Assembly: GCA_050260175.1 (NCBI GenBank)
Contig: JBLNBS010000070.1
Span: forward strand, 3,379-67,378
DNA: 64,000 nucleotides
From: Patescibacteria group bacterium
GTDB lineage: Bacteria; Bacillota; UBA4882; JAAYXC01
Reading direction: 5' to 3'
A program made the position numbers and the translations under genes. Positions 3,926-19,482 of this stretch are shown here, in pieces (position 1 is the stretch's first letter; each line of letters starts with the position of its first letter). The notes below the pieces were generated by a model. It did not search any database. It worked only from the letters and a program-made list of their open reading frames with translations, and was not told where the DNA came from.

Positions 3926-5260
3926 ATGCCGTCCATGGTCGTGGCGGGGATGCAATGGGGCGACGAGGGCAAGGGCAAGATCATCGATTACCTGGCCGCG
4001 CAGGCGCAGGTCGTGGTCCGTTTCCAGGGGGGGAACAACGCCGGCCATTCCGTGGTGGTGGGCGAGGAGGAATTCAAGTTCCACCTCCTTCCCTCGGGCG
4101 TGCTCTATCCGGATGTCGTCTGCGTGATCGGCAACGGCGTCGTGATCGATCCCGCGGTCCTGCTCGGGGAGATCGAGGCCCTGCGGCAGAAGGGATTTGC
4201 CGTGTCACGGCTATGGATCAGCGACAGGGCGCATCTCATCCTGCCCTATCATCCCCTCATCGACCGGCTGGAGGAGGCGGGCCGGACCGCGGATCGCATC
4301 GGCACCACCGGCCGGGGCATCGGCCCGGCCTACGTGGACAAATACGCCCGTTACGACGCGATCCGTCTCTGCGACCTCCTGGACGCCGGGTTCTTTCGCG
4401 AAAAGCTCGTGCGGGTGCTGGCGGTCAAGAACCGGCTGCTTACCGGGTACTATGGCGCCGCCCCCCTCGATCCGGCGGAGATCCTCAGCCGGTACGAAGC
4501 GTACGCCGCGGCCCTGGCACCCATGGTTGCCGACACCTCGGTGCTCGTCAACGAGGCGCTCGACGCGGGACAAAGGGTGCTCTTTGAGGGCGCGCAGGGG
4601 TCGCTCCTGGATATCGATCACGGCACCTATCCCTACGTGAGCTCCTCGTCGCCCGGCGCGGGCGGCGTCACCTCCGGGGCGGGGGTCGGCCCGACGAGGA
4701 TCGACGGCGTGCTGGGCGTCGTCAAGGCCTACACGACCAGGGTGGGAGAGGGCCCCTTCCCGACCGAGCTGCCGCCCGACCAGGTGAGCCAACTCCGGGA
4801 CGGCCGGGATGGCCGGGGCAGGGAATACGGCACGACGACGGGGCGGCCGCGGCGCTGCGGCTGGTTTGACGCGGTCATCGCCCGTCATGCCGCCCGCATC
4901 AACGGCGTCACCGCGCTGGCCGTGACCAAGCTGGACGTCCTCGATCCCTTTCCCGTCATCAGGGCCTGCACGGGCTACCGCCTGCGGGGGAAGACGATCG
5001 GCGAATTCCCGGCCTCGTTGCGCGTCCTGGCCGAGTGCGAGCCGATCTACCGCGAGTTTCCGGGCTGGCAGTGCGAGACCTCGGGGGCAAAATCGCTCGC
5101 CGATCTCCCCTCCCAGGCCCGCGCCTACCTGGATTGGATCGCCGAAACCGTCGGGGCGCCGCTCAGCATGGTCTCGGTGGGCTGGCGGCGGGGAGAGACG
5201 CTCATGGCGGAGGATCCGTGGCAAGCAACAAGTCTGAAAGCCATAAGGTCAAAAGCCTAA
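3926..5260 (+). CDS. purA: Adenylosuccinate synthetase
   Basis: N-terminal QWGDEGKGK P-loop, GNNAGH and TTGRGIGP motifs. RBS GGAGGTG lies 6 nt before the ATG. Confidence 0.9.
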   Translation: MPSMVVAGMQWGDEGKGKIIDYLAAQAQVVVRFQGGNNAGHSVVVGEEEFKFHLLPSGVLYPDVVCVIGNGVVIDPAVLLGEIEALRQKGFAVSRLWISDRAHLILPYHPLIDRLEEAGRTADRIGTTGRGIGPAYVDKYARYDAIRLCDLLDAGFFREKLVRVLAVKNRLLTGYYGAAPLDPAEILSRYEAYAAALAPMVADTSVLVNEALDAGQRVLFEGAQGSLLDIDHGTYPYVSSSSPGAGGVTSGAGVGPTRIDGVLGVVKAYTTRVGEGPFPTELPPDQVSQLRDGRDGRGREYGTTTGRPRRCGWFDAVIARHAARINGVTALAVTKLDVLDPFPVIRACTGYRLRGKTIGEFPASLRVLAECEPIYREFPGWQCETSGAKSLADLPSQARAYLDWIAETVGAPLSMVSVGWRRGETLMAEDPWQATSLKAIRSKA

Positions 5261-5390: not shown

Positions 5391-5466
5391 GGGCCATTAG
5401 CTCAGTTGGCAGAGCACCTGACTTTTAATCAGGGAGTCTGGCGTTCGAGTCGCCAATGGCCCACCA
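5391..5466 (+). tRNA. tRNA-Lys (anticodon TTT), including CCA
   Basis: Cloverleaf: acceptor GGGCCAT/ATGGCCC, D arm GCTC..GAGC, anticodon loop CTTTTAA, T arm TGGCG-TTCGAGT-CGCCA, 3' CCA. Confidence 0.85.
5417..5466. repeat. attL core: 50-bp tRNA-Lys 3' segment duplicated at 19425-19474
   Basis: The 50-bp sequence CCTGACTTTTAATCAGGGAGTCTGGCGTTCGAGTCGCCAATGGCCCACCA occurs here and again 14 kb downstream. Confidence 0.7.
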
Positions 5467-5479
5467 GGATAAATGCCCG

Positions 5480-6742
5480 TCAGGACTGAATTCCTGCCGG
5501 GCTTTCTTTTTGTCCATCGGCGCCTACTGTATCCTTTGTGTATCCATTCCAAAGGGTATCCATAAAGGCGCCCATCCCCGCCGCCGCAGCCTCGTCCCGG
5601 CCCGGGAACAGGTGCCCATAAACCCCTAACGTCACGTGGATCGATGCGTGGCCCATGCGGTATTGCAAGGTCTTGGGGTCCACGCCTTGGGCGATCAGGA
5701 TCGCCGCGTGCGTGTGCCGCAAGGTATGCAAGCTTACCCCTTCGAGTCCGGCGGCCGAGGTTACTGCGGCCAGGTCCCGCCGCAGAACGTTCCTCTTCCT
5801 GAGCGGCCCGCCGTCCTCATCGGTGAAGACCAGATCCCATTCATTCCTCCACGGCGGCCAGTCCGGCACGTGCCGGCGCATGGCCGTTCTTCGTTCCCTG
5901 CGTTCGATGGCGGCCTGCTTCTCCGCGTCTTGGCGTTCCTTCTGCCGCGCCAAGGCGGCCATGCCCATGGGAGACAAGGTGATCGTCCGGCGGCCGGCGC
6001 CGGTCTTCACCGGGCTGATCGATATTTGACCCGTCGCCGAATCCTCGATGATGGCCTGCCGGACGGTGGCTTTCGACCCTTCCCAATCGATGGCGGACCA
6101 AGCTAAACCGCGCAGTTCCCCGGAACGCATCCCGCTGTCCAGGCCGAGCAGGAACAGATCCTCGAGCCTGGCCCCCCGGGCGGCGTCGAGGAACCGGCGC
6201 AGCTCGTCCGGTACGAGAAAGCGCGCTTCCTTGTGGGAGTAAGTCCGCTTTGCCGCCAAGCGGGCTGGGTTCCGCGCGATCAGCCCCTTGGCCAGGGCAT
6301 CGTCGAAGGCGGCCCGCAGGACAAGGGCGGCAAGGGCGACAGTCCGCGGGGAGAGCCCGGCCTCGTCCAGTTCGGCAAAGAGGGCGTTGATCCGTCGATA
6401 GTCCACCGCCGCCAGCTGAAGCCCGCCGAAGTAAGGCCGGATATATCGTTCATAGGTTTCCGTGTAGCTTGACAGGGTGGAAGGCCTGACTTCGGCTTTC
6501 TTCGCGCGCAGCCAGTCCCGGAAATGATGCTCGACCGTGATCCGCCCGACCTGGACCGGGGCGCCCTTCAACGCGTCGCCCTGCACGGTGCGCAGTTTCT
6601 CCAAGGCTTCGGTCTTGGTCCGGCCGTAGACTCGCCGGCGGATCCGCTTCCCGTTGGCGTCAAAGCCAAACGAGGCCTGAGCGTACCAAAGGCCGGACTT
6701 CAACCGGCCCACAGAACCTTCACCGCGGCCACGCCTTGGCAT
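5480..6742 (-). CDS. int: Tyrosine-type site-specific integrase
   Basis: N-terminal MPRRGRGEGS...GKRIRRRVYGRTKTEALEKL is typical of phage integrases. C-terminal catalytic region HTLRHTHAAIL...HASIHVTLGVYGHL carries the R..H..R..Y residues. RBS AAGGGAGG precedes the ATG at 6742. Confidence 0.85.
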   Translation of the reverse strand: MPRRGRGEGSVGRLKSGLWYAQASFGFDANGKRIRRRVYGRTKTEALEKLRTVQGDALKGAPVQVGRITVEHHFRDWLRAKKAEVRPSTLSSYTETYERYIRPYFGGLQLAAVDYRRINALFAELDEAGLSPRTVALAALVLRAAFDDALAKGLIARNPARLAAKRTYSHKEARFLVPDELRRFLDAARGARLEDLFLLGLDSGMRSGELRGLAWSAIDWEGSKATVRQAIIEDSATGQISISPVKTGAGRRTITLSPMGMAALARQKERQDAEKQAAIERRERRTAMRRHVPDWPPWRNEWDLVFTDEDGGPLRKRNVLRRDLAAVTSAAGLEGVSLHTLRHTHAAILIAQGVDPKTLQYRMGHASIHVTLGVYGHLFPGRDEAAAAGMGAFMDTLWNGYTKDTVGADGQKESPAGIQS

Positions 6743-6918
6743 TATGTCGCCTCCCTTGAATGGCCTCAAGATCGCTACGATCATATCAGGACGGGCTGGC
6801 ACAAACAAGGGCGAAGAACGAAAAGCGCGCCATCACAGCATTTGAAGGCGCCGACGACCGGATCATTGACCCGTGGTCGGGGCTAGATTTACGATAGGAC
6901 GCGAAAGGGGGCGCAGGA

Positions 6919-7140
6919 ATGAAAAGACAGAACGTTACTGAAGCGGCGTTTTTCGAGGATGGCTTGGTTCCGATCCCAGATGCGGCGCGATTCCTTGGGC
7001 TCGGGATCACAAAGGTCTACGAGTTAATGGGCAAGGGCCAGCTACCGTTCGTCTTGATCGACCGTTCCCGGCGGATCCGGCGAAGCGACCTTCGGCGGTT
7101 CGTAGAGGAACGGCGCCGCGGCGGGCAGGCGGCGAGCTGA
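6919..7140 (+). CDS. AlpA/excisionase-family HTH DNA-binding protein
   Basis: Short protein; AARFLGLGITKVYELMGKGQLPFVLIDRSRRIRRSDLRRF resembles the excisionase/MerR-type winged helix. It sits next to and divergent from the integrase gene. Confidence 0.55.
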   Translation: MKRQNVTEAAFFEDGLVPIPDAARFLGLGITKVYELMGKGQLPFVLIDRSRRIRRSDLRRFVEERRRGGQAAS

Positions 7141-7152
7141 GGAGGGATCGAG

Positions 7153-7419
7153 TTGGCGTGTGATGCCGGCGCTCATCATGATCCCGAAGGCTACCTGCTT
7201 CTTCCGCGGCAAATTCGGCGGACGCTCAAGACGGCCGGATTGGTCCTCGAGTGCTACCACGAAGAAAGCCTGGGGAAGATCATTGAGCTGTCTTGCCGGC
7301 GATGCGGGCGCGAGTGGGCGGTTTTCCGCATGTCAGACGGCCGCTATGTCCGTTCCTGGTGGCGCTGTCGGAACGGGTGCAACCTGCCAGGCCGACGGGC
7401 CAGCACGAAAGGGGGATGA
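7153..7419 (+). CDS. Small Cys-rich (zinc-ribbon-like) protein; TTG start after GAGGAGGG
   Basis: CRRCG...CRNGC motif pairs with a strong RBS upstream. No family assignment is possible. Confidence 0.35.
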   Translation: MACDAGAHHDPEGYLLLPRQIRRTLKTAGLVLECYHEESLGKIIELSCRRCGREWAVFRMSDGRYVRSWWRCRNGCNLPGRRASTKGG

Positions 7420-7426
7420 GCTGACG

Positions 7427-7603
7427 ATGGGCGATGTCATCCTTTTGCCTGCCCTACGTAACGGCCAGCTATGCCCAATGTGCTTCCAACACCCGGTCTT
7501 ACCGGGCCGGCTGTGCTGGACGTGTGAGCACTTGATGGATTCCGTGGAGGGATGCCTTCGCCGCGAGGAGGAACGGGAGAGGGCGATACCCCATGCAAAA
7601 TAA
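7427..7603 (+). CDS. Small zinc-ribbon protein
   Basis: CPMC...CWTC motifs. The ATG at 7427 is preceded by AAAGGGGGA. Confidence 0.3.
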   Translation: MGDVILLPALRNGQLCPMCFQHPVLPGRLCWTCEHLMDSVEGCLRREEERERAIPHAK

Positions 7604-7655
7604 AGAAAACGCGCCCGGCGGAAACGGGCGCGGCGACGAAGGGTTGGTGACAAGG

Positions 7656-8717
7656 ATGTCTCATAATCAGGATACCACATCCATCCCGCAGAGACAAGAT
7701 CTCGCGGGCTTTTTTGGAGGTCAATGGGTGGCGGTTCCGCGCATCCTGTGGAGGGTGATTTGGCAAAAAGGGCTTACCATGTTGGAACTTAGGATTCTTG
7801 CGGTTTTGATAGACCAATCCTGGCATGCCGGCTACCGGGTGGATACCATGTCGCAAATAACGCCCGGGGATCTCGAGACGCTGATCGGTGGTCCCCGTTC
7901 TCGGATAAGGGCGGCCCTGCGTGCAATGGAATCCTGCAATGTGATCCAAAGGGCTGATGGCGGCCGCTACAGCGTTAATAAAGATCCTTGGGCCTGGACC
8001 GGTGATTATGCACTTGATAGAGCGGCCTTCGATACCGCCATGAACCACCTGAAGAGGATGAAGGAACGGAAATACCAAGCCGATGCTTTAGCGCATGTGT
8101 GCGCATCACGTGCGCAGCACGTTATGCAAACGACCCAAACGACAAGCCCTAAAGGACCAGTAGCAGGCAATATAGGGAGCATGCCCGAAGCATGCCCGGA
8201 GCATGCCCAGTTAGCGAATCACGAAGTGGGGACAGATCGTCCCCAGGAAGAATTGAAAGTGGGGACAGATTGTCCCCAGCAAATGGGGACAGATCGTCCC
8301 CACCTCGACGCCGCAAACCCCTGCGGCGACGGCGACGGCGGCGCCCCTTTAGAAGGTTCTTTAGATCCTAAAAGAAAGAAAAAAAGCAACTTAGATCCCC
8401 CGGCTGCCGCCGCTCATTCTTTGTCCGCGCCTTCGGCGACGGACGACGCGCACCGAACCTATACGCCCGGGGTGATCGTCGAGAGAATCAATACTGCCCG
8501 GAGCTTCAAGGGCATGCCACCATTGACCGATGAAGAGACGCAGGCCGAATTGCCTGGGATCAAGAGGTTCTGCGAACGGTTTACCGACGACGAGATCCGC
8601 CGCGGACTGGGTGAATGGATGGCAGGTGACCAACCCGCGACCGTGCCCGCGTTGATAGCGTTTCTCGTGGCTCGGCAACATCCGAAGGTGAGCCGTGCAG
8701 AGCGGCTTGTGAGTTGA
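7656..8717 (+). CDS. Replication-initiator-like protein with an N-terminal winged-helix (HTH_36-like) domain
   Basis: LTMLELRILAVLIDQSWHAGYRVDTMSQITPGDLETLIGG...RAALRAMESCNVIQR resembles phage/plasmid replication-initiator DNA-binding domains. The gene contains iteron-like repeats. Confidence 0.45.
   Translation: MSHNQDTTSIPQRQDLAGFFGGQWVAVPRILWRVIWQKGLTMLELRILAVLIDQSWHAGYRVDTMSQITPGDLETLIGGPRSRIRAALRAMESCNVIQRADGGRYSVNKDPWAWTGDYALDRAAFDTAMNHLKRMKERKYQADALAHVCASRAQHVMQTTQTTSPKGPVAGNIGSMPEACPEHAQLANHEVGTDRPQEELKVGTDCPQQMGTDRPHLDAANPCGDGDGGAPLEGSLDPKRKKKSNLDPPAAAAHSLSAPSATDDAHRTYTPGVIVERINTARSFKGMPPLTDEETQAELPGIKRFCERFTDDEIRRGLGEWMAGDQPATVPALIAFLVARQHPKVSRAERLVS
8227..8302. repeat. Three iteron-like palindromic repeats TGGGGACAGAT(C/T)GTCCCCA inside the rep-like gene
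   Basis: Near-identical 19-bp units at 8227-8245, 8260-8278 and 8284-8302. Each is a 7-bp inverted repeat (TGGGGAC/GTCCCCA) around a 5-bp spacer. Confidence 0.6.
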
Positions 8718-8749
8718 CGGTCATTCCTGGAATAGGGAGGAGGAGCGCA

Positions 8750-8950
8750 ATGCGGCGCGAGATACCGGGATTCGTGCCATTCCGCTGTCTGAAGTGCGCA
8801 AGTCATCTCGTGTGGCTGATCGGGCGGTCCTCGATTTGGTGCTCAGGGTGCCAAAGGCACATCGGCTGGGAGGAGTTCGAGCGAAGCCCGAGTGGCATGG
8901 AGACACTGCGGCCGGCCAGGGATGCATCACACACAATCATCTCTCGCTGA
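8750..8950 (+). CDS. Small zinc-ribbon protein
   Basis: CLKC...CSGC motif pairs. The ATG at 8750 is preceded by GGGAGGAGG. Confidence 0.35.
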   Translation: MRREIPGFVPFRCLKCASHLVWLIGRSSIWCSGCQRHIGWEEFERSPSGMETLRPARDASHTIISR

Positions 8951-9281
8951 ATCTTAATCGCAGGTAGAAGGCACGTCACGAGGAGTTTTCGGAAACCAAC
9001 TTAAAAACAAAGCCACGATAGATCTATTGCCCAGCTAGACTGCGGGGCGTGGGATGCATCACAAGGCGTGAAAATCGAAAACAGGTCAGCGAGGGATGTT
9101 TACCAGATTTTTCCTCCCCCCCTCGGGTTCGGGTAGGGCGGCCAGGCGATGACCGGAAGGGGGAGGCTTCCGACTCGTACAGGCCGAAATTTCAAATTTT
9201 TCCCATGGATTCGAGGCCGCACGAGCCTGGTCCAGGAATTTCCTGGAAGAATGGACATTTTGCCGATTTCGGGAATCAAGC

Positions 9282-9310
9282 TTGACGGCTCATCGGGGAC
9301 ATGCTATAGT
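9282..9310 (+). promoter_or_regulatory. Strong candidate sigma-A promoter driving the RHH to tape-measure to capsid block
   Basis: TTGACG -35 box, 17-nt spacer, TATAGT -10 box, located after a ~400-bp non-coding gap. Confidence 0.5.
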
Positions 9311-9331
9311 ATTACCGATAGCATTACCGAT
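9311..9331. promoter_or_regulatory. Two direct repeats ATTACCGAT just downstream of the -10 box (candidate operator)
   Basis: ATTACCGAT at 9311-9319 and 9323-9331, between the promoter and the RHH gene. Confidence 0.4.
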
Positions 9332-9364
9332 GATATTCGCTTATAGACTATGAGGAGGATTCCG

Positions 9365-9841
9365 ATGGGCGATACTTTCAGTGTCAAGCTCCCGGCCGGT
9401 CTTCCCCTGGCCGACATCGACGCGGCAGCCGCGGCGCGGGGATTGAACCGCAACCAATTCGTAATCGATGCGATCGGGCTTCTGGCGGTCCTCACTCCCG
9501 AGTTCATCCAGGCAGTGGATCACTTCGCCGCCGGCCTTCGGGTACCGCGCGCGACGGTGATTGAGGCGTTCACGATCCGCCGCCTAGCGGAACTGAAGGC
9601 AAAGGCGACGGTTCACCCGCGCTATAGCGAAGCTCTGGATGAGATCATGCTCTCTTCGCGGGGCGCCATTCTTGGGCAAGAACTGCTTGCTACACTTACA
9701 AACCAATTCGCCCAGCGGGAGCGGGACCGCCTGACCCGGGCCGAACGGGCGAAGAACCCCAAGCAAACGGCGACCGGCGCCGGCATCCCGCCCGAGGCCG
9801 ACGAAGACGAGATAGTCACGCAGGGTGAGTTGGATGAGTAA
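9365..9841 (+). CDS. Ribbon-helix-helix (CopG/Arc-like) domain protein
   Basis: The N-terminus FSVKLPAGLPLADIDAAAAARGLNRNQFVIDAI fits the RHH beta-strand plus two helices. RBS GAGGAGG precedes the ATG at 9365. Confidence 0.4.
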   Translation: MGDTFSVKLPAGLPLADIDAAAAARGLNRNQFVIDAIGLLAVLTPEFIQAVDHFAAGLRVPRATVIEAFTIRRLAELKAKATVHPRYSEALDEIMLSSRGAILGQELLATLTNQFAQRERDRLTRAERAKNPKQTATGAGIPPEADEDEIVTQGELDE

Positions 9842-9996
9842 AAAAATCGCGCTGGTTCTGCTCATCCTGCTGATTGTGTGGCTTTTCAGGTCCCCCCGTG
9901 GGCGCCTGGTCACAGGAAGGCTAATCTACTGGGTGGCTTGGAACATCGGTTGGGCGGTTGAGCTTGTAAAATTGATTATTTTTGGGGGCGCTAAGG

Positions 9997-12552
9997 ATGG
10001 CGCTGCTGGGCAAACTCGCCGTCGCCGTAGTCGGTGACATCAACCAGCTCAAAACCTCTTTCCGCGAGGTCAAGAGAGAGTCCCAGTCTTTGGGGAGAGA
10101 GGTTCAGAAGTCCGGTCTGGGCCTTCAGCAGATCGCCAAGTATGGCACGATGGCCGGCGCGGCGATCGTATCGGCCATGGGCGCCATGACCATCGCCACT
10201 ACCAAGAGCGCGGAGGAGATCGATCTCCTCAGCAAAAGGACGGGCGTATCCCGCGAGGAACTGCAGGGCCTTGCCTACGCAGCCCAGCAAGAGGGCACGG
10301 ACATACAGAGCCTCGGAACGGCCCTGGCCCGGCTTTCGCAAAACATGTACGACGCGAGCCAGGGGACCGGCGAGGCGCGTAAGGCTTTCAAAGACTTCGG
10401 CATCGTTGTCACGGATGGACAGGGGCGCCTCCGGTCTTCTGCAGACGTGCTCATGGACCTGGCCGATCGCATGAGGGGTATGACCAACGAGACCGAGATG
10501 TCTGCCCTGGCCATGAAAGTACTTGGCCGTGGCGCGCAGGATTTGGTACCGTTCCTCCGTATGGGCCGGGCGGAGATCGAACGGCTCATCGAGGAGGCGC
10601 GACGGCTCGGATACGTCATCGGTGAAGAGGCAACAAAACAGCTCGAGGCCCTGGGGGACGAGCTTGACGCCATTAAAATAGGTTTTGCCGGGTTCGGTAG
10701 GCAAATCTCGGCGGACCTTGTGCCAGTTAATCTTGCCTTCGCCCGCGGCCTCAAGGAGATTTTGATGTGGATTCATGCGATCCCTGCGCCGATTCGCAAG
10801 CTGGTGACGGTCGGCTCCCTATTGGCAGGGACAATCGCCCTGATTGGGGGCGCCCTGTCGTTACTGGTTGTCAAAGCCGCAGCGGCCCGCGCGGCCTTGC
10901 TGGCTTTGGGCACATCGTTTGGGCCATTCCTTATTGGCGGAGCCGTCGTTGTCGGTATCGGAGCAGCCGTCAGTTTGATCGGTGAAATCGCCCAGCGTGT
11001 CAAAGTGATAAAAGGCGATCTCGACGATATGTCACGCAATACACTAGAAGCCGAACTCATCAAATGGGAAGCCAGGCTGAAAAAGGCGCGAGAAGAATTA
11101 CGAAAAACAGAAAAGATGGTCGGGCAAAAATATGATCCCAAGAAAAATACTGACATGTTGGGGCCGTTATATATCGGTGGTATTCTTGATGAAATTGAAG
11201 TCGCCAATAAAGCAGTCGCTAATCTCAAAAAGAGATTGAAAGAACTTGGCGAGGAAGAGCCTGCGGCTGGCACAGAGAAATGGTCCCTGACCGAAACCCT
11301 CGCCAAAGCCAAGAAAGAGCTTGCCGACATCGACAAGATAGCTGATGCCTTCGGCGACAAGAGCCAGGTAGCCGCCGACAAGATAGCCGTGCTCAAGCGC
11401 GTCATCGTTGACCTGATCGAGCATGGATATGACCCGACAAAGACCAGCCTGGGGAATCTCATCGCCATGTACCAGGCATATGCCGAGGCCTCCCAGGCCG
11501 CCACCGACGCCAAGGAGCGGGAAAAGAAGGCGACCGATCTCCTCACGCAAGCCCAGCAGGCACTCAACGGGGAGACCTACCAAGATATCTCCGCACTGGA
11601 GACCCTGCGCGCACAGCTTGAGGCGCAGGCAGCCGTGGATACGGAACGCGCCGATTCTCTCAGGGCGGCGGCCGCAGCCCTGAACGTCCTGATCCTATCT
11701 CTGCGCCAAGCGACCCAGGACGAGCAGAACGCCGCGGAAGCGACGGAACTCCTTGCCCAGGGGCAAGCCAAGCTGGCGGAGATGACCGGCCAAGCGATCC
11801 CGGAGTGGGAGACGTTCGCCCAGAAGCTCGAGGAGGCCGCCGCGGAGTCCGGCGTCCTGCCGGAGACGGCCGAGGCCCTGCGCGACCTGGCCGCGGCGAT
11901 CCGCGAGGCGGGCCTGGCCACCGTGGAGATCGAACCCTATGATTTCGAAACCGCCTTCATCGCCGGCCTGCGGGACACGGCCAAGGAGTGGAAGGACTTC
12001 CTGGACCACGTGCGCGGGGGCGCGGCGGACTTGGCACAGACCATGAACCAGACCCTCAACGACTTCTTCTTTGACGGTGTGACCGCTCAGCTCAAGAACC
12101 TGGGCGACTATGCCCAGCAGGTATTCAACTCCATCGCCCGCAGTTTCGCCAATATGCTCTCGGACATGTTAATGAACTGGCTGATGAGCGGCTTCACCAA
12201 CATATTTGGCGGCGGGTTCTTTGGTGGCGGGCCGGTTGGTATGCCCTGGCCGTCTTATATCGGTACCATGGCCGAGGGTGGGACCGTGGCGGCGCGGGCG
12301 GCCTACCTCGTGGGCGAACGCGGGCCTGAGTTATTCGTCCCGCAGCAGTCCGGGACCATCATCCCCAATGACGAGATCGGCAGTCTCTCCCCTAAAGTTA
12401 CAGTCAACCTGATTAATCAGTCCGGCACTCCCCTGCAGGTAACGGACCGCAGAACCGAGGTTGACGGCGAGCAGGTAGTCGCCACACTCTGGCTTGGCGC
12501 CTACTCGAAGAACAAGGGCGGCCTGCAGGACGTTCTTGGCGGGGGGCGATAA
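9997..12552 (+). CDS. Phage tail tape-measure protein (TP901-family-like)
   Basis: 852 aa, highly helical. The N-terminal core TGVSREELQGLAYAAQQEGTDIQSLGTALARL...FKDFGIVVTDGQGRLRS resembles tape-measure cores. Central hydrophobic segments and a long coiled coil follow. The C-terminus carries the conserved GERGPELFVP motif. Confidence 0.65.
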   Translation: MALLGKLAVAVVGDINQLKTSFREVKRESQSLGREVQKSGLGLQQIAKYGTMAGAAIVSAMGAMTIATTKSAEEIDLLSKRTGVSREELQGLAYAAQQEGTDIQSLGTALARLSQNMYDASQGTGEARKAFKDFGIVVTDGQGRLRSSADVLMDLADRMRGMTNETEMSALAMKVLGRGAQDLVPFLRMGRAEIERLIEEARRLGYVIGEEATKQLEALGDELDAIKIGFAGFGRQISADLVPVNLAFARGLKEILMWIHAIPAPIRKLVTVGSLLAGTIALIGGALSLLVVKAAAARAALLALGTSFGPFLIGGAVVVGIGAAVSLIGEIAQRVKVIKGDLDDMSRNTLEAELIKWEARLKKAREELRKTEKMVGQKYDPKKNTDMLGPLYIGGILDEIEVANKAVANLKKRLKELGEEEPAAGTEKWSLTETLAKAKKELADIDKIADAFGDKSQVAADKIAVLKRVIVDLIEHGYDPTKTSLGNLIAMYQAYAEASQAATDAKEREKKATDLLTQAQQALNGETYQDISALETLRAQLEAQAAVDTERADSLRAAAAALNVLILSLRQATQDEQNAAEATELLAQGQAKLAEMTGQAIPEWETFAQKLEEAAAESGVLPETAEALRDLAAAIREAGLATVEIEPYDFETAFIAGLRDTAKEWKDFLDHVRGGAADLAQTMNQTLNDFFFDGVTAQLKNLGDYAQQVFNSIARSFANMLSDMLMNWLMSGFTNIFGGGFFGGGPVGMPWPSYIGTMAEGGTVAARAAYLVGERGPELFVPQQSGTIIPNDEIGSLSPKVTVNLINQSGTPLQVTDRRTEVDGEQVVATLWLGAYSKNKGGLQDVLGGGR

Positions 12553-12554
12553 CG

Positions 12555-13325
12555 ATGCCGGCTTTTATTGAACCGCTGCCGCGCGGTACGGGGAACGCTG
12601 TGGTGGTTTGCCACAAAGCGCGATGGGCTCTCGTCCAGGATGACGAATTAAGGCGAAACATTCTCCTCCTCGCGCGGGAGTTTTTCCCGCTGGAGCATTG
12701 GCTTGCCCTGCGAGAAGGCGACCGCCTGGTTTATTGGCGCGTTGATGATCGATACCATCCCGGTAAAAACTTGGCCCTGGACGCGACTTGGTCGGCCACC
12801 GCGCCAACGCTACCAACGAACCCCGAAGACAGGCACGCGGTACGGCTGGGGCGAATTGTTGGCGTCCTCCCGGATCGGAGGCTTTGCTTCATCAGGGACT
12901 TGGCAACAGGCAGGGAGATCCTTTGCCACGCGCGGGCCGTTATACCCGCCAGTGATTGGTCTATGCTGACGGTAGGGACTCTGGTGTCTTTTTGCGCCGA
13001 TTACGATCGGCTCCATCCAGGTCTTTTCCGCGCCGTTGTTGTTCAGCGTGGCAATGCAGAGGAAATTCACGCCGGCCTCCCCGGGGTTCTCGTGGCCGCC
13101 GCCGATCCCCCGGTCGAGGACGGCCAGAAGGCCACAAAAAGCGAAGAGACCACCAGTGCCGCCGGTGTTGGCGGCGGCTGTGGCATAGAACCCGGGTTCC
13201 GCTGGAGAGCGGACCTGCCGCGGCCTGTTGGAGAGCAGGGAAACGGCCTTGCCGAACTACCACGAGGCCACCGCGCAAGAGTTGGAGAACCCTTGCCGCG
13301 GGCGTTGGAGAACGCGGCCGGATGA
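12555..13325 (+). CDS. Hypothetical protein; the 3' extent is uncertain
   Basis: Start codon overlaps the tape-measure stop (ATAACGATG). No recognisable domain. The C-terminal half is compositionally odd. Confidence 0.3.
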   Translation: MPAFIEPLPRGTGNAVVVCHKARWALVQDDELRRNILLLAREFFPLEHWLALREGDRLVYWRVDDRYHPGKNLALDATWSATAPTLPTNPEDRHAVRLGRIVGVLPDRRLCFIRDLATGREILCHARAVIPASDWSMLTVGTLVSFCADYDRLHPGLFRAVVVQRGNAEEIHAGLPGVLVAAADPPVEDGQKATKSEETTSAAGVGGGCGIEPGFRWRADLPRPVGEQGNGLAELPRGHRARVGEPLPRALENAAG

Positions 13326-13379
13326 ACGGACGGCAGGAGGGTGAATGGAACCCCAAAAACAGGAAAGGGAGTGTCACGG

Positions 13380-14642
13380 ATGACACCTGATGAGATTCGG
13401 GCTGCGATCGCGGAAAAGGGCGAGCAGAAACGCGCGTTACTCAGGCGGATTGACAAAGCCCCCGTGGAGGAACTTAGAGCGATCAATATCGGCCTGGAAA
13501 ACCTGAACGCGGAAATCGCCGATTTGCAGCAGCAATTGGCCGAAAGCGAAGCCCAGCGGACGCCTGGCGGCCCTGTGGGTCGGATGCAGATCTTGGGTAC
13601 CTATGGAATCCACCCCGCCGCCGGCAACGTCGCGGGCACGGGCGCCATGCGGGAAGAGTTCCGCGCGGCCCTCGAGGAAAAAGGCAAGGCGCTTCTCGAG
13701 CGGCGCGCGGTGATCTTTACACCCGAGGAGATCGCGGAAGCACGGTCCATCACAATCGCTACTACCGGGATCGTAACAGGCAAGGCCGTCGATCCGACGA
13801 TCGCCCCCGCGCCCCAGCAGGTGAGCGCGCTGATCGACATGGTAGACGCGCCGACGATGATTGGTGCCGAATCGTTTGCCAAGCCGTTCCTGGTCAGCGT
13901 AGGGGAGGGCGATTACACCGGCGAAGGTTTAGACGCCGCGGAAGCGGAACCGACCTTTGGATCGGTTACGATTCAAAAGGCGAAAGTGACCGCGTATGCC
14001 GAATTTTCCGAGGAAATGCGCAAACTGTCGCCGATTGACTACGCCGTGGCCATCATCGGCGGGGTTCGGGAAGCCGTGCGAAAAAAACTCGGCCGGCAGA
14101 TCGTTGTCGGCTCCGGTGGTGTCAATGCCCTCGTTGGCATCTATAACGCCCCGGAGGCCGTCATCCCGGCCGCGTCGGACCTGGAGATTGGGACCGTCGA
14201 TTCGGAGACACTCAACAAGTTAATTTTCGGCTTCGGCGGAGATGAGGCCGTGGAAGGCGAAGAGGCCGTCCTGATCCTGAACAAGCTGGACCTCAAAGCC
14301 CTCGCGGATCTTTATGGAAACGATGGTCGAAACCTTTACGACATCCAATATGCCGGCGCTACTGGGTTTATCACTAACCGCGGGGGCGGCGGGATGAAGA
14401 TTCGGTACGTCATCAACGGCGCATGCGGCGTTCTGAGCGACCCGGCTACAGTCGCAGGTGCCAAAACCATGTTGTTCGGCTATGCCAAGGCCTATACCCT
14501 GTGTCAGTTCAGCGGCCTCGAGGTCCAAGAGTCATCCGAGTACCTCTTCAAGAAGGGCATGATTGCAGTGCGGGCCGTTGCGATGGTTGGCGGTAACACG
14601 GCGCGGTACAAGGGTTTCGTCCGTGTCAAGAAAGCGGCCTAG
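13380..14642 (+). CDS. HK97-fold major capsid protein-like protein with an N-terminal coiled-coil delta domain
   Basis: About 420 aa. The first ~100 aa are coiled coil (scaffold-like delta domain). The C-terminal part has the glycine-rich, beta-rich pattern of HK97-family capsid proteins (GFGGDEAVEGEEAVLILNK...ITNRGGGGMKIRYV...). AAGGGAG RBS precedes the start. Confidence 0.5.
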   Translation: MTPDEIRAAIAEKGEQKRALLRRIDKAPVEELRAINIGLENLNAEIADLQQQLAESEAQRTPGGPVGRMQILGTYGIHPAAGNVAGTGAMREEFRAALEEKGKALLERRAVIFTPEEIAEARSITIATTGIVTGKAVDPTIAPAPQQVSALIDMVDAPTMIGAESFAKPFLVSVGEGDYTGEGLDAAEAEPTFGSVTIQKAKVTAYAEFSEEMRKLSPIDYAVAIIGGVREAVRKKLGRQIVVGSGGVNALVGIYNAPEAVIPAASDLEIGTVDSETLNKLIFGFGGDEAVEGEEAVLILNKLDLKALADLYGNDGRNLYDIQYAGATGFITNRGGGGMKIRYVINGACGVLSDPATVAGAKTMLFGYAKAYTLCQFSGLEVQESSEYLFKKGMIAVRAVAMVGGNTARYKGFVRVKKAA

Positions 14643-14795
14643 CGGCGCCCTGAGAACCTCGTGGAGTTACAGCGCGCCCGGTTCACGCCGGGCGCGCCTA
14701 CGGTTCCCGCGTGATCCCGGCCTTTTCGTTCGTCCTTGGCAGGGCGGCAGCCGGGGGCGATGAACCCCCGGCCGCCGGCAAGAGGAGATGATTCC

Positions 14796-15407
14796 ATGGA
14801 CCGCTACTTCGTTGACAAGGATGGCTATGTGTACAGATACGATGGGGAATTAGAGCGGCCAGATCCCGAGATCACGGAGGCACTTGCCGAGATCACCCTG
14901 GCCCGCCATCAACGGTTCCCTTTCCCCCTGCCCGCCGACTGGCCGCGGTTTAGAGCCTTCATTACCTCTAGCGGTGAGGTGTACGTTGCCGAAGCGCCAC
15001 GCAACGAAGCAGATAAGGACATCTCCTGCCGGCTGCCAAAGTACCACGTATCACCGACGTACATCACTCCGTCTGGCGATTGCTATAACGGCGACAGGCA
15101 GAGCGAAGAGGACATCGAAGTTCCTCCCAAGCCTCCTTTCCATAGGTGGGATGGCCAGAAATGGGCCTTCGACATTGAGGTGTACCGTCAGGAGTATCTG
15201 CGGCCCCGGCGTAATGCCCTGTTGGCCGCGACCGATTGGACGGACCTACCTTCCGCTCCGCTTACGGCGGAACAGAAGGCGGCCTGGCAAACTTACCGGC
15301 AGGCTCTACGGGATCTCCCCGAAAAGACCACAAGTGCCGAAGTGGCCTGGCCGGAGATGCCGATGAAAATCCAAACCCTACCTGATTTAGGAGGTCTGAT
15401 AGCATGA
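14796..15407 (+). CDS. Phage tail fibre assembly (Tfa)-like protein
   Basis: The C-terminal motif NALLAATDWTDLPSAPLTAEQKAAWQTYRQALRDLP...WPEMP matches the conserved Tfa/gpG C-terminus (W..YR..L......WP..P). RBS AGAGGAG precedes the start. Confidence 0.45.
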   Translation: MDRYFVDKDGYVYRYDGELERPDPEITEALAEITLARHQRFPFPLPADWPRFRAFITSSGEVYVAEAPRNEADKDISCRLPKYHVSPTYITPSGDCYNGDRQSEEDIEVPPKPPFHRWDGQKWAFDIEVYRQEYLRPRRNALLAATDWTDLPSAPLTAEQKAAWQTYRQALRDLPEKTTSAEVAWPEMPMKIQTLPDLGGLIA

Positions 15408-16213
15408 GCGGCGCCATCAAAGTTTCCGGCGCGACGTTTCTCCATTTATGTTATCATCCCACTATCCACGAGTCTCAGCCCGTCGAACACCTGGGCGTGA
15501 AGCCGTGGGCCATAGGACGGTCATACGAGTTCGGAAAGACCGCCAATCCGCACAAAAAATTCATTGATTCGCGGCTCTTTGGTATTAAGAATCCCCACAC
15601 AGGGAACATTCATTTTTTGAATCACTTAATACAAGAGATATATTCATTTGGGAAAACAGGTCAAAAAGACTCCGTGATATCCACTTTTTACCACTATGAC
15701 CCGCTTATCGCATTCCATGAGGCTAATGTTTTAATTTATGAACTGCTCTATATCATCCGCGAACAAATCTTTGAGGAGGTCAGGCGGGAGCGGTTCCCTT
15801 CGCTTCCTTCCAGGGAAACATGCCTCTTCGCCTTGAATGACAGCGAGAAAGATCTTGATTATTGGATAAACAATCTGCTTGGCGGCCGGGCAGCGGCCGA
15901 AGGTAAAGAATCCTTCCCGGTTACCCTGGTTAAAATCAGGTTCACCGGGAAGGTGTTCAAAACAAACCGCTTGACCGGTGTGTTTCTGCCGCTGGTTTCT
16001 GCGGGTCCGGATTATTGGCGCGAACAAGCGGGCAAGTACTGGTCGGGATCCGTCCCAGACTCACCAGACGCGGAAGAGGTTCTTCTTGGGGAAGGCGTAG
16101 GCGTGGTCGAATCTATTTCTCCGATCGAGTGGCGCGTGGATCCTGTGCAGTTCAGTACGGCGCGAAAGGCCGAACTGGTCCAGACTACCTTGGTCCCGGC
16201 GGCAGGAGGTTGA
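15404..16213 (+). CDS. Hypothetical protein in a low-GC island (cargo/moron candidate)
   Basis: The 5' two-thirds is markedly AT-richer than its surroundings. The start overlaps the upstream stop (ATGA). No family recognised. Confidence 0.45.
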   Translation: MSGAIKVSGATFLHLCYHPTIHESQPVEHLGVKPWAIGRSYEFGKTANPHKKFIDSRLFGIKNPHTGNIHFLNHLIQEIYSFGKTGQKDSVISTFYHYDPLIAFHEANVLIYELLYIIREQIFEEVRRERFPSLPSRETCLFALNDSEKDLDYWINNLLGGRAAAEGKESFPVTLVKIRFTGKVFKTNRLTGVFLPLVSAGPDYWREQAGKYWSGSVPDSPDAEEVLLGEGVGVVESISPIEWRVDPVQFSTARKAELVQTTLVPAAGG

Positions 16214-16291
16214 TTCCAGATTAACTACATACGCTGCGCCAATCCGAACTGCTCCACCCTGTTTGACTCCCGGTGCGGCTCTGTTTGTTCA

Positions 16292-17209
16292 GTGTGCCGT
16301 GCGGCCCAGGCGGCGGGGAAGCTGCCCTTAGAATTTCCCAAGATTGAGCCAGCCGCTACAGTCACTCCCGCAGGATCGGGAAGTCTCGTCACATATTTCC
16401 CGGTGCACCATGGTTCCCTGGGCGTCCAGATACGAGGCGCGGAATATTCATGGGTTCGCTATACTTCGGGGTTCTCCGCGCCGCCCGACGTGGTGGACCT
16501 TTGCACGGTCTACCATACGTGGTCCCTTGTCGGGATGAGTTATCATCAATGGGGCAGGATTATTGTTCGACCCAAGTCCTATGTTGGGCTTTATTCGACC
16601 CCCCGATGTCACAACGATCTATTTGATGATTTTCACGCCATAACAAGAGTGGATCTCGAAATGATGGAGAAATGGGGCCGAGAAAACAATTCGTTATTTG
16701 ATTGGCGGTTGTCTTCTTCGAATCCACCAAATGGACGCGGACCTAAACAATTTGGCGAAAACGCGATTATTCCGATTTGTATTGCCCAAATACCCGAAGG
16801 TTTCCTCAAGGTTTTTTATGGCGGTGTTCATTCGTTTGGGTTGAACTGGGAATTCTCACCCGATGGTAGATTCAGCAGCAATACGGAACCTCCAACTGCG
16901 GAAGACAGCAAAATGCTGTATGAACGCGCGTTCCGGATCAAGGCCGCGAAAATGCTCTGGTTGACTGATTGGACTACCCGGGCTGATGCACCGCTGACGG
17001 AAGAGAAACGCGCAGCCTGGGACGCATACCGCGCGGCTCTTTACTGCCCAGACGAGATCCTTTCGGGTGCCCGGGAGATGCCGCGGATGCCGGCAGGCCG
17101 GGTCCTTAATCCGAGGTGGGACTCAGCACCGATGGAAATCTGTTGGGACACCTGGTGGAAGTTCAGGGAGCCGGCTGGCAACGCAGGTGATTTTCCCTTG
17201 GCTGAGTGA
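16292..17209 (+). CDS. Hypothetical protein with a Tfa-like C-terminal motif; possible Cys-rich N-terminal extension from 16214
   Basis: C-terminus AAKMLWLTDWTTRADAPLTEEKRAAWDAYRAAL repeats the motif of the 14796 gene. The in-frame upstream stretch encodes RCANPNCSTLFDSRCGSVCSVC. Confidence 0.4.
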   Translation: MCRAAQAAGKLPLEFPKIEPAATVTPAGSGSLVTYFPVHHGSLGVQIRGAEYSWVRYTSGFSAPPDVVDLCTVYHTWSLVGMSYHQWGRIIVRPKSYVGLYSTPRCHNDLFDDFHAITRVDLEMMEKWGRENNSLFDWRLSSSNPPNGRGPKQFGENAIIPICIAQIPEGFLKVFYGGVHSFGLNWEFSPDGRFSSNTEPPTAEDSKMLYERAFRIKAAKMLWLTDWTTRADAPLTEEKRAAWDAYRAALYCPDEILSGAREMPRMPAGRVLNPRWDSAPMEICWDTWWKFREPAGNAGDFPLAE

Positions 17210-17247
17210 CGGTCCGTTTCGATCGGCAGCACCATGGAGGGTGAGAG

Positions 17248-17703
17248 ATGGCCGCGAGAACGCCGGGTGATCTCCTGCTGAGTTACGATGAGATCCGGCT
17301 GGTCTATAACACCCTGGCCGGCGTCCCGAACAAGTCTTTGCCCGCGGCTGAACTCCTGGGCAAGCTCTATCGGGCCATCGTGGTCCGGGCATCCCAGGAA
17401 GAGCGGGCGGAATTGGCCGCGCGGATCCGTGCCGGCGTGAACTATGCCGGCCGGCTGTGCCCGGAGTGCGGCCGGGGCCTCGAGAAGATCGCCGGCCAAG
17501 ATGCCTATGGCTGTCCCAAATGCGGCGGCGAGTGGTGGCCGGCGGACTCGAACGAGGCGCCGATGTCGGCGGCGGCCTTGTGGCAGGACGAGCAGCGGGT
17601 GAAGCGAGCCCTGATCGACCCGAACTCCCACGGCGGCGGCAAAAAGGGAGGTCGGCGTCAAAAGCAAAAGAAGCCGCCGCCAGTGCCCTGGTACCAAAGA
17701 TGA
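17248..17703 (+). CDS. Zinc-ribbon protein (CPECG...CPKCG) with a basic C-terminal tail
   Basis: Cys pairs spaced for a zinc ribbon, with a Lys/Arg-rich C-terminus. Confidence 0.4.
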   Translation: MAARTPGDLLLSYDEIRLVYNTLAGVPNKSLPAAELLGKLYRAIVVRASQEERAELAARIRAGVNYAGRLCPECGRGLEKIAGQDAYGCPKCGGEWWPADSNEAPMSAAALWQDEQRVKRALIDPNSHGGGKKGGRRQKQKKPPPVPWYQR

Positions 17704-17715
17704 TCCCCGCCCGGT

Positions 17716-17744
17716 CTATATAGACCTATATAGACTCTATATAG
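17716..17744. repeat. Three phased copies of the palindrome-like CTATATAG(A) at ~10.5-bp spacing
   Basis: CTATATAGA at 17716-17724 and 17726-17734, CTATATAG at 17737-17744. They lie between the ends of two convergent genes and overlap the stop of the minus-strand HTH gene. Confidence 0.6.
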
Positions 17745-17961
17745 GTTTTGTATCGTACGAAACAATTGTCTGGTTCAACCGTTCCCGGATCGCCTCTTTC
17801 GAGATCCTGAACCTGCGCCCGATCCTCATGGCCGGGATCTGGCCGGCATGGATGGCGTCGTAGATCGAGTCGTGCGTGACGTGTAGAAGCTCCGCCGCCT
17901 GATCGACGGTTAGCACGTCGTCATAATCATCGAACCGCTTGGGTTTGCGAGATCTGGGCAT
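17737..17961 (-). CDS. Excisionase-family HTH DNA-binding protein
   Basis: LTVDQAAELLHVTHDSIYDAIHAGQIPAMRIGRRFRISKEAIRERL matches the excisionase-type HTH fold. Confidence 0.6.
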   Translation of the reverse strand: MPRSRKPKRFDDYDDVLTVDQAAELLHVTHDSIYDAIHAGQIPAMRIGRRFRISKEAIRERLNQTIVSYDTKPI

Positions 17962-18340
17962 GCGGAATAATTCGCCCTACTGACTGCTTCTCCTCCATCC
18001 CCGAAAGTGGGGTGGACGCCGAACAGGTCAGGGCGGGCGGCGGGGACCAGGACGAGGGGAGGGTACTTTTACGTCCAGCCCTCAATATCCCGTCCTGGGG
18101 CATCCTGAGGCCTCGTTTTTGGGCCGATGCCCGCCCGGCGTAGGTTTGGAGACTGTAGCGCCTCTCTTGCGGAATACCCCGAACTGTTATAAGCTTGATC
18201 AGAGGCCGTGGATCGGTAGTTTGCGGCTCCCCATCCGCGCCTCCGGCCCGGGGCTTAACCGCCCCGGGCTTTTGCGGGTTACGGGTATAAAAAACCCCCA
18301 CGGGGAGATCCCGAAGGGGTTTATAGCCAATGAGGACAAC

Positions 18341-18538
18341 TTACGCGGGGCGGATTTGTGCATTGCACTGATCACAGAAGAACCGCTCTCCGTCGTCTAT
18401 GGCCTTCTGTATGTCCACAAAGGTGATTAGATCGTCCTGCCTTACTTTGTCAACTTCTTCTTCTGTGGCACAATCTTTACAAACTATTTCTTTATTGATG
18501 TAATACCCAGCGATTTCCTCATCTTTATAGGTGGCCAT
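18341..18538 (-). CDS. Small acidic zinc-ribbon protein
   Basis: CKDC...CDQC motif pairs in an AT-rich segment. Confidence 0.35.
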   Translation of the reverse strand: MATYKDEEIAGYYINKEIVCKDCATEEEVDKVRQDDLITFVDIQKAIDDGERFFCDQCNAQIRPA

Positions 18539-18671
18539 GGGTTACACCTCCTTTCGTCTGCCTTCATGATACCAGATCCTCTGGGCAAGCCCCAATAGGT
18601 GCGAAAATTCTTTTATTGACCGCTTGCCGTTACCTGCCACAGGCGGCCGCCATCCCGGACGGCACAATCCC

Positions 18672-18935
18672 CTAAGACTGGCGCCCCATAGAGACAAGGA
18701 TGGACTTCATTGCTTCGGCGAGAGGCACTTTCTTATGGCTTGGCGGCCGTTTCATACCAAGATCCGCCCAAGTGATAATCGCAATATCTGCCGCTTTCAG
18801 TTTCTCATTGGCCAAGCGCCAGATCGTGTGGTTCATGGCTTCGGGCAGATTGGCGAACGGGATGACAACCGGACCCGTCGAGAAATTCGCGGCAGCGGCG
18901 GCGATTTCCGGCCGGACGTGCAGACCGTCTTCCAT
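18672..18935 (-). CDS. Hypothetical protein
   Basis: ORF with coding-like composition; no family recognised. Confidence 0.25.
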   Translation of the reverse strand: MEDGLHVRPEIAAAAANFSTGPVVIPFANLPEAMNHTIWRLANEKLKAADIAIITWADLGMKRPPSHKKVPLAEAMKSILVSMGRQS

Positions 18936-19039
18936 CACTACACCCCTTCTCGCTTGTAAGTACATGCCTTCATATATAATACCATGCGTTCATATGGATG
19001 TCAAGCTTCGCATATGACCGAATTGTCTTCTAGTGTAGT

Positions 19040-19249
19040 TTGTGGTATCCTGTTACCGGGGAGGTGATCCGCTTGGAGTTCTTGACACCCGAGGAGGCCG
19101 CGGCCAAGCTCAAAGTGACCCGGCGAACGGTCTACAAATGGCTGACATCGGGGCGCATCAAGGGCGTAAAGCTTGGCGATAGTTCGTTATGGCGCATCCC
19201 GGAATCAGAGATGCTCCGCCTTCTCGGAGAGAGCCAAGGCCAAAAGTAA
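19040..19249 (+). CDS. Excisionase-family HTH DNA-binding protein (start uncertain)
   Basis: LTPEEAAAKLKVTRRTVYKWLTSGRIKGVKLGDSSLWRIPESEM matches the excisionase-family HTH fold. It lies next to attR. Confidence 0.5.
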   Translation: MWYPVTGEVIRLEFLTPEEAAAKLKVTRRTVYKWLTSGRIKGVKLGDSSLWRIPESEMLRLLGESQGQK

Positions 19250-19424
19250 AGGCCGGGGATCATCTCCCCGGCCGGTGATGGGCAATTCTCATGTATCCAT
19301 TTTGTATCCATATGGGCGAAAAAACGCCCTAAAAAACGGATGACGACGAAACCCATGATGGGCTAAAACCCCAGTATTATGAAGGACTTCGGGCACTGAT
19401 GAAAATACATGAAAAAGGCCTGAT

Positions 19425-19474
19425 CCTGACTTTTAATCAGGGAGTCTGGCGTTCGAGTCGCCAATGGCCCACCA
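19425..19474. repeat. attR: 50-bp copy of the tRNA-Lys 3' end
   Basis: Identical to 5417-5466. It lacks the 5' 26 nt of the tRNA. Confidence 0.7.
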
Positions 19475-19482
19475 GCTTTAAG

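Follow-up and report, generated by a model that had tools for sequence, protein, structure and literature searches.

The 64-kb stretch of contig JBLNBS010000070.1 analyzed here, which in its whole length is referred to as the window, contains an integrative, phage-derived element of 14 kb (positions 5417-19475). Inside this element lies a gene for an initiator-like protein (7593-8717), and the repeated DNA within this gene, a candidate replication origin, is the subject of the present analysis. An earlier note on the same DNA had reported three near-identical 19-bp palindromic units at 8227-8302 and had proposed a repeat-finder run as a check. Reading of the window sequence, a repeat finder and a pattern search agreed that TGGGGACAGATYGTCCCCA starts at 8227, 8260 and 8284, in each case inside the gene, which confirmed the exact positions. 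Elsewhere in the window TGGGGACAGATYGTCCCCA was present in 0 copies, with 0.01 expected by chance. When up to three mismatches were allowed, the three units, hereafter referred to as iterons, were the only matches, and at least three matches were obtained in none of 100 shuffles.

Each iteron is an imperfect palindrome with arms of 7 bp and a center of 5 bp, and the C-to-T change in iteron 2 results in a better palindrome (8+3+8). The start-to-start spacing is 33 and 24 bp, and the spacers are unequal in length (14 vs 5 bp) as well as in sequence, so that only the 19-bp cores are repeated. As the earlier note had also stated, the units lie within the coding sequence and specify a repeated GTDRP-type peptide: they are read in frame 0 of the gene (codons 212-237) as VGTDRPQ, VGTDCPQ and MGTDRPH. 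Frame 0 is open across the iterons and the A-rich tract that follows them, and both other forward frames contain stop codons there.

A 9-mer present three times within 80 bp was found at three loci of the window, which were the iteron array, a neighboring triplet of AGCATGCCC and a GGC microsatellite (27.7 kb), and at essentially none in 30 Markov-2 simulations. In addition, the iteron array is the sole cluster of at least three copies of a 14-mer in the element. The scans applied to the window were of this stricter type, while a loose repeat finder (16-mers, four mismatches), which was unspecific in host DNA of high guanine-plus-cytosine (GC) content (40 of 56 tiles scored), was used on phage loci only. 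Clustering of GATC was considered as an origin feature and rejected: four sites were present in 180 bp, but 5.5% of the intervals scanned equal that, and GATC is common genome-wide.

Further DNA features accompany the array within the gene. The AGCATGCCC triplet is located 19 bp upstream of iteron 1 and has a period of about one helical turn. No other 9-mer triple with equal spacing exists in the window besides the GGC microsatellite, and 30 simulations produced 0. Its copies are at offsets 585, 596 and 607 from the start codon and therefore in three different reading frames; since 11 is no multiple of 3, this is a DNA-level repeat which yields no peptide repeat. The triplet probably belongs to the same candidate origin as an accessory site for protein binding. 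On the other side of the array, a GC-rich palindrome folds at -15.2 kcal/mol, a value matched by 0 of 200 shuffles, and is followed by the A-rich tract. Overall, this tract has 25-27% GC compared with an element mean of ~58%; its 45 bp at 8349-8393 (27% GC) belong to the lowest 0.4% of 45-bp intervals in the element, and the lowest-GC 40 bp of the gene begin at gene nucleotide 765. Coding strand and A-rich strand are the same here (AAAAGAAAGAAAAAAAG), and the resulting peptide is KRKKK. In lambda the coding strand is likewise purine-rich (AAAAGAAAAAAGAAAAG) and the peptide Lys-rich, with the same strand orientation. Along the gene the order is putative DNA-binding domain, iterons, A-rich tract and C-terminal domain. 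Two copies of TTAGATCC, 30 bp apart (8361-8368 and 8391-8398), were observed to flank the A-run of the candidate unwinding tract.

The number of iterons is polymorphic. A contig from a sister sample (L001), with 99.85% identity at aligned (non-gap) positions over 5 kb, carries a gene that differs from the gene in the window by one single-nucleotide polymorphism and an extra 24-bp in-frame unit. This unit, TGGGGACAGATCATCCCCA followed by GGAAG, is inserted directly before iteron 3 and results in four iterons with a spacing of 33, 24 and 24 bp. None of the seven copies (three in the window, four in L001) deviates in the outer 6 bp of either arm; variation is confined to the central positions 12 and 13, both changes alter the amino acid (R to C and R to H), and synonymous differences are absent. 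Invariant arms around a variable center would be the pattern expected for a dimer-binding site, in a sample that is small and whose copies may be young. The lambda origin has four iterons and that of Shiga toxin (Stx) phages six (PMC7466680), which parallels the three versus four seen here.

Similarity of the encoded protein to known initiators is remote and confined to its N-terminal domain. Phage_rep_O (PF04492) was the sole Pfam family matched; residues 47-135 align with positions 11-95 of its 95-position profile, with an E value of 4.7e-5 when the whole protein was searched and of 1.5e-5 when only its N-terminal part was. With a profile built from eight O-like phage proteins, hhalign aligned lambda O residues 31-118 with initiator residues 47-138 (E 2.8e-4), and BLASTP against lambda O alone returned the same region (E 0.009). 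All three alignments coincide, including the terminal NK..W motif. Pfam gave no match in the initiator to Phage_rep_org_N or Phg_2220_C, the domains of replisome organizers of the SPP1 G38P type, even at E values up to 10, none to Rep_3 or other plasmid Rep families, and no helicase domain; a PDB sequence search gave no match, and NCBIfam returned nothing useful. Tblastn against phages and IMG/VR retrieved only variants of the same element for the initiator, and an exact search for the iteron pair found 0 instances in GTDB genomes, IMG/VR and JGI metagenomes.

A full-length single-sequence AlphaFold2 (AF2) model was poor (predicted local distance difference test score, pLDDT, of 44), and its Foldseek matches in the PDB were meaningless. 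In this model residues 184-289 are of low confidence, and these include the residues encoded by the iterons and the A-rich tract. A long helix is predicted for residues 143-183, which are part of the ~75 residues by which the distance between the N-terminal domain and the iterons exceeds that in lambda O. The C-terminal four-helix domain, which reached a pLDDT of 79 when modeled separately, is a candidate partner-recruiting domain. The protein part encoded by the putative origin would then be a low-complexity linker joining two domains, so that the DNA may be able to serve both roles.

For calibration, lambda and eight other O-like genes were analyzed with one repeat finder; as two of them, from Pseudomonas phages, have the same sequence, the number of distinct genes was eight. 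Three to four dyad-symmetric repeats of ~18 bp were found inside the gene in seven of these eight (lambda, P22 gene 18, phi80 gp15, Pseudomonas, Erwinia, HK446 and Hafnia), and the same-length flanks of the sampled genes mostly scored zero. The GenBank records of lambda and phi80 annotate the repeats as O/gp15 binding sites. The A-rich lowest-GC 40 bp were counted at the array end in six of the seven, and are located elsewhere in the gene in phi80 and the Hafnia phage Meifeng. The repeat sequence is not shared between phages. In the Pseudomonas phages the spacing is 33 and 23 bp, compared with 33 and 24 bp here, and the phi80-type spacing of 21 bp provides a precedent for in-frame iterons. The next gene after every sampled O-like gene is either of the P type or encodes a helicase.

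The lambdoid systems (lambda, P22 gene 18, phi80 gp15 and Stx phages) are the closest parallel in layout. Gene O contains the lambda origin, and O protein remains functional when in-frame deletions remove DNA from the AT-rich part of that origin (PMC6022878); in lambdoid phages generally, the origin with its iterons and AT-rich tract sits in the middle of O (PMC7466680). In common with the gene analyzed here they have three to four (or six) dyad sites of 18-19 bp with outer G/C tracts inside the initiator gene, a spacing of 20-33 bp, an A-rich coding strand with a Lys-rich linker and an iteron number that varies among relatives, as well as an N-terminal winged-helix domain (putative here) before the sites and a separate C-terminal domain after them. 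On the other hand, the A-rich tract abuts the last repeat in the lambdoid phages but is 54 bp away across a GC-rich palindrome here, a P-type loader or helicase gene is located downstream there but not here, and the additional 11-bp-phased triplet upstream is present only here. Their hosts are proteobacterial. The element described here, 14 kb long and lacking terminase and portal genes, resides in a high-GC, uncultured and probably Bacillota-related host.

The element that carries this gene is an insertion. In a related genome (L017), whose purA is 78% identical, purA, tRNA-Lys and tRNA-Arg are found in the same order without the element and the sequences are collinear on both sides, which identifies the element as a genuine insertion. 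A mobile element with att repeats, an integrase, an excisionase and an empty site in a relative would need a replicon.

Based on these findings, the region 8178-8397 is in our estimate fairly likely to be the vegetative replication origin of the element, lying inside its own initiator gene. We infer that binding, unwinding, helicase recruitment and replication would proceed in the following manner. The integrase and excisionase would excise the element from tRNA-Lys as a circle, and dimers of the initiator's N-terminal lambda-O-like winged-helix domain would bind the three (in the variant four) 19-bp sites of the form TGGGGAC-N5-GTCCCCA. The resulting nucleoprotein complex would destabilize the A-rich tract of 27% GC ~54 bp downstream, and the C-terminal four-helix domain would recruit either a replicative helicase or the protein that loads it. 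As genes for both are absent from the element, it would depend on the host or a helper phage for this factor. The earlier note had taken the layout to imply that the element replicates autonomously after excision; the excised element may do so, and would need host or helper-phage factors.

Several observations weigh against this interpretation. At the protein level, the Phage_rep_O score of 24.3-25.9 bits is under the curated cut-off of 28.7, so that the label "winged-helix replication-initiator-like" used in the earlier note keeps the backing of the only Pfam match (E 1.5e-5) and lacks that of the cut-off. The hhalign probability was only 41%, PHROGs returned no match for the initiator, and neither a search of 5.8 billion clusters nor one of 1.84 billion representatives with HMMER detected homologs outside the same element, the only one retrieved being a 382-amino-acid variant from it. 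For the C-terminal domain Foldseek found nothing in the PDB and nothing significant in BFVD, where the best match (E 0.19) was a protein whose name refers to the N-terminal domain of the G39P helicase loader and the weak matches included some named "replisome organizer", a fold resemblance that is suggestive at most. With regard to the layout, a GC-rich spacer of 54 bp parts the last iteron from the A-rich tract, the array starts at codon 212 as compared with codons 108-122 in the lambdoid O genes, and the iteron spacings are all multiples of 3, which formally allows for a peptide repeat. The O-like gene of Spoks, a Gram-positive phage, contains no internal array, and the embedded-array architecture is therefore not universal in the family. 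Finally, families of P-type loaders, DnaB-like helicases and primases were found nowhere in the element, and the metagenomic contigs end at the att repeat, as expected for an integrated or a circular state alike.

Four other explanations for the repeats were weighed. They could encode a short peptide repeat, (V/M)GTD(R/C/H)P(Q/H), which arose by in-frame duplication in a disordered linker and has no role as DNA. The in-frame spacing (33, 24 and 24 bp), the in-frame 24-bp indel of the variant and the position in a low-complexity, low-pLDDT region would agree with such an origin, and copy-number slippage is expected of any tandem-like repeat. However, a peptide gives no reason for palindromic arms of 7-8 bp (chance per unit ~4^-7), for the restriction of the repetition to the cores between unequal spacers, or for synonymous sites that are identical when both changes are non-synonymous and central. 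The adjacent AGCATGCCC copies are read in three frames, and in lambda and phi80 this layout is annotated as an origin, with the iterons of phi80 in frame as well at their 21-bp spacing. We regard a pure peptide repeat as quite improbable. Sites for another protein, such as an operator or silencer bound by HTH_17 or RHH-like proteins, a pac site or a partition-type centromere, appear unlikely, too. Among the products of the element are several small DNA-binding proteins (two of the HTH_17 type, 6919-7140 and 17737-17961, and an RHH-like one, 9350-9841), its replication module looks incomplete with no helicase or loader gene, and pac sites and operators can occur inside genes. Yet the RHH-like gene already has operator-like 12-mers at 9282-9339, no terminase or par gene was found in the element, and a position after an O-like domain and before an A-rich tract is the specific signature of an O-type origin.

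Two further explanations fit the data less well. Three or four hairpins in the mRNA, in addition to the GC-rich one, might slow translation or serve as targets of an RNase or regulator. As RNA the units do fold at -12.5 to -13.1 kcal/mol, with z scores between roughly -3 and -4; the stretch 8170-8410 folds far better than its shuffles (z = -7.2), and the C-to-T change lengthens the stem in iteron 2. Any transcribed DNA palindrome gives a hairpin, though, which makes the folding not discriminating; there was no Rfam match for the region, and the AGCATGCCC direct repeats, the A-rich tract and the O-type parallel would be left unexplained, making a role in the mRNA very unlikely in our view. Alternatively, the 19-mers might be paired degenerate DnaA boxes that recruit the host DnaA. 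They can be written as two inverted 9-mers that agree with the DnaA box at 7 of 9 positions, and iteron 2 contains TTGTCCCCA, one mismatch from the box of high-GC Gram-positive bacteria, the consensus of which is TTGTCCACA. The mismatch falls in the conserved CACA core, however, 8 of 9 matching positions are reached by a single half-site out of six, and one-mismatch boxes are not enriched in the window (9 found vs 6.1 expected); this explanation was rejected as weak and is scarcely credible. An origin of the O type remains the reading that we prefer, and the features on which it draws are listed in Table 1 together with the other features of the element.

Table 1. Features of the candidate origin, the initiator-like gene and the element that carries them (positions in the window)
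Feature	Position	Strand	Remarks
Initiator-like gene, 374 aa	7593-8717	+	open reading frame; NCBI hypothetical protein MGE5528757.1 of a metagenome-assembled genome
N-terminal domain, aa 47-135	7731-7997	+	remote match to lambda O DNA-binding (winged-helix) domain
Second repeat set, AGCATGCCC x3	8178, 8189, 8200 (8178-8208)	.	exact 11-bp period
Iteron 1	8227-8245	.	TGGGGACAGATCGTCCCCA; TGGGGAC-AGATC-GTCCCCA
Iteron 2	8260-8278	.	TGGGGACAGATTGTCCCCA, C-to-T copy; TGGGGACA-GAT-TGTCCCCA
Iteron 3	8284-8302	.	TGGGGACAGATCGTCCCCA; TGGGGAC-AGATC-GTCCCCA
GC-rich palindrome	8309-8328	.	CGCCGCA-AACCCC-TGCGGCG; in 54-bp spacer between iterons and A-rich tract
A-rich, low-GC tract, candidate DNA-unwinding element	8349-8397	.	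...CTTTAGATCCTAAAAGAAAGAAAAAAAGCAACTTAGATCC; peptide LDPKRKKKSNLD
C-terminal four-helix domain, aa 290-362	8460-8678	+	AF2 pLDDT 72-93, this part only
attL, 51-bp perfect direct repeat	5417-5467	.	3' part of tRNA-Lys(UUU), 5391-5466
Tyrosine integrase	5480-6808	-	Pfam Phage_integrase, E 5e-21
HTH_17 excisionase-like gene	6919-7140	+	Pfam HTH_17, E 9e-11; PHROG 66, excisionase and transcriptional regulator
RHH-like protein, 163 aa	9350-9841
Tape-measure-like protein	9982-12552
HK97-type major capsid protein	13341-14642
Second HTH_17 gene	17737-17961		Pfam
attR, second 51-bp copy	19425-19475	.	repeat-to-repeat span 14,008 bp

Directly 3' of the initiator gene the element encodes a CxxC protein of 66-78 amino acids and then the RHH-like protein, which is followed by the tape-measure-like protein, an orphan protein of 256 amino acids, the capsid protein, proteins resembling tail-fibre assembly factors and the second HTH_17 gene. 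No open reading frame (ORF) of more than 400 amino acids is present other than those for the capsid and tape-measure-like proteins, and terminase, portal and par genes were not detected in the element. The 256-amino-acid protein was an orphan in the homolog search as well, relatives of the tape-measure-like protein were absent from IMG/VR, and relatives of the capsid protein (40-50% identity) were located in ordinary TerL-portal-protease-capsid modules or on contigs that were too short to be of use. Three proteins of the element are orphans or nearly so. Judged by its gene content, the element looks like a satellite or a cut-down prophage. Mycobacterial satellites with capsid and tape-measure genes have also been described (2025 preprint, PMC12822802). 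Two independent metagenomic contigs (L002 and L003), each with 100% identity to the element, share an end at 18247, ~1.2 kb before attR. In the population, the element may therefore have a variable or repeated right end.

On either side of the initiator gene are small ORFs, three in total (7153-7419, ~7427-7603 and 8750-8950), whose paired CxxC motifs are zinc-ribbon-like. None of them matched a family, and gene calling on the metagenomic contigs had passed over the first two. In the region 3' of the initiator gene (8718-9350) no repeat with at least three copies was found. Within it, at 9282-9339, a promoter-like TTGACG-17-TATAGT with an upstream TG is overlapped by the tandem 12-mers ATAGTATTACCG and ATAGCATTACCG (then ATGATATTCG), which lie just upstream of the RHH-like gene and are probably the operator of the structural-gene operon. 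The intergenic region 8950-9350 was also considered as an alternative origin and rejected, as it contains two-copy repeats only in addition to the operator-like tandem over the promoter-like site.

Outside of the element, the composition of the window and its genes bear on the identity of the host. The source genome is labeled "Patescibacteria group bacterium" by NCBI, and its DNA has ~67% GC. The nearest relative of purA (window 3926-5260) is found in a metagenome-assembled genome labeled Bacteroidota (78%), followed by Bacillota genomes (62% and 56-57%). The taxonomic labels are probably wrong, and a deep Bacillota-related lineage appears more likely as the host. A YD/Rhs-repeat protein of 714 amino acids (51581-53725) was also noted, the end of which lies, together with a hydrophobic ORF of 97 amino acids (53722-54015), in a patch of 33% GC compared with ~65% around it. 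Such an arrangement would be typical of an Rhs protein in which the toxin tip has been exchanged along with the immunity gene.

Theta plasmid initiators (Rep_3 and others, e.g. pPS10 RepA, F RepE, R6K pi and RK2 TrfA) are winged-helix proteins that act on repeats beside an AT-rich unwinding element, as the putative initiator described here would. The iterons of these plasmids are direct repeats of ~17-22 bp, usually phased at 22 bp and located outside rep, the inverted repeats form the rep operator, and DnaA boxes are usual. The repeats described here, in contrast, are palindromic and lie within the gene, and the protein has no Rep_3 match. The earlier note had spoken of a "lambda O / plasmid Rep architecture". 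Its lambda O part is supported by the sub-threshold Phage_rep_O match, the palindrome array inside the gene and the A-rich tract, but the reference to plasmid Rep is imprecise, since in iteron plasmids the rep gene itself does not contain the iterons.

The Rep of phage-inducible chromosomal islands (PICI), which include the Staphylococcus aureus pathogenicity islands (SaPI), is a helicase and often fused to a primase, and the AB boxes of phage SPP1 are not known to be 19-bp palindromes. PICI and SaPI resemble the element in being small phage-related islands that are specific for a tRNA or other site, encode int, xis and their own initiator with an iteron origin, and replicate after excision (PMC6092414). 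Their origin differs in that it directly follows rep at its 3' end, outside the gene, and has its AT-rich region between two sets of iterons (PMC6092414), whereas here it would be inside the gene with iterons on one side only. In SPP1, oriL with its AB boxes and unwinding element is embedded in gene 38 (PMC5737612). The gene for G38P of this Bacillota phage shares with the initiator gene the presence of repeated boxes and an adjacent AT-rich element (PMC5737612), and at the protein level there is the weak, non-significant fold resemblance of the C-terminal domain (names referring to the G39P N-terminal domain or to replisome organizers, E 0.19 or worse). SPP1 has its own loader G39P and helicase G40P, neither of which is encoded by the element.

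A more far-reaching proposal, which we put forward tentatively and consider doubtful, is that the element represents a new kind of phage satellite in an uncultured, probably Bacillota-related lineage, with its own HK97-type capsid and tape-measure-like proteins and no terminase or portal, that combines a lambda-style origin with a helicase and loader borrowed from the host or a helper phage. Its origin would then be a composite one in which palindromic in-frame iterons are joined by the out-of-frame, 11-bp-phased triplet that serves a second factor, and its initiator would belong to an unsampled branch of O-like proteins.

The embedded-origin layout is already known from phages and would occur here in the gene of a protein without close relatives; the understanding of this class of origins is unchanged. 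If the preferred reading is right, the replicon of an otherwise unannotated mobile element would be located in a compact cassette of ~1.2 kb, and the range of initiator genes with an internal origin would extend to a very divergent initiator in an uncultured high-GC bacterium. A weak Phage_rep_O match together with an internal palindromic array and an A-rich tract may then be usable for the annotation of origins where homology fails.

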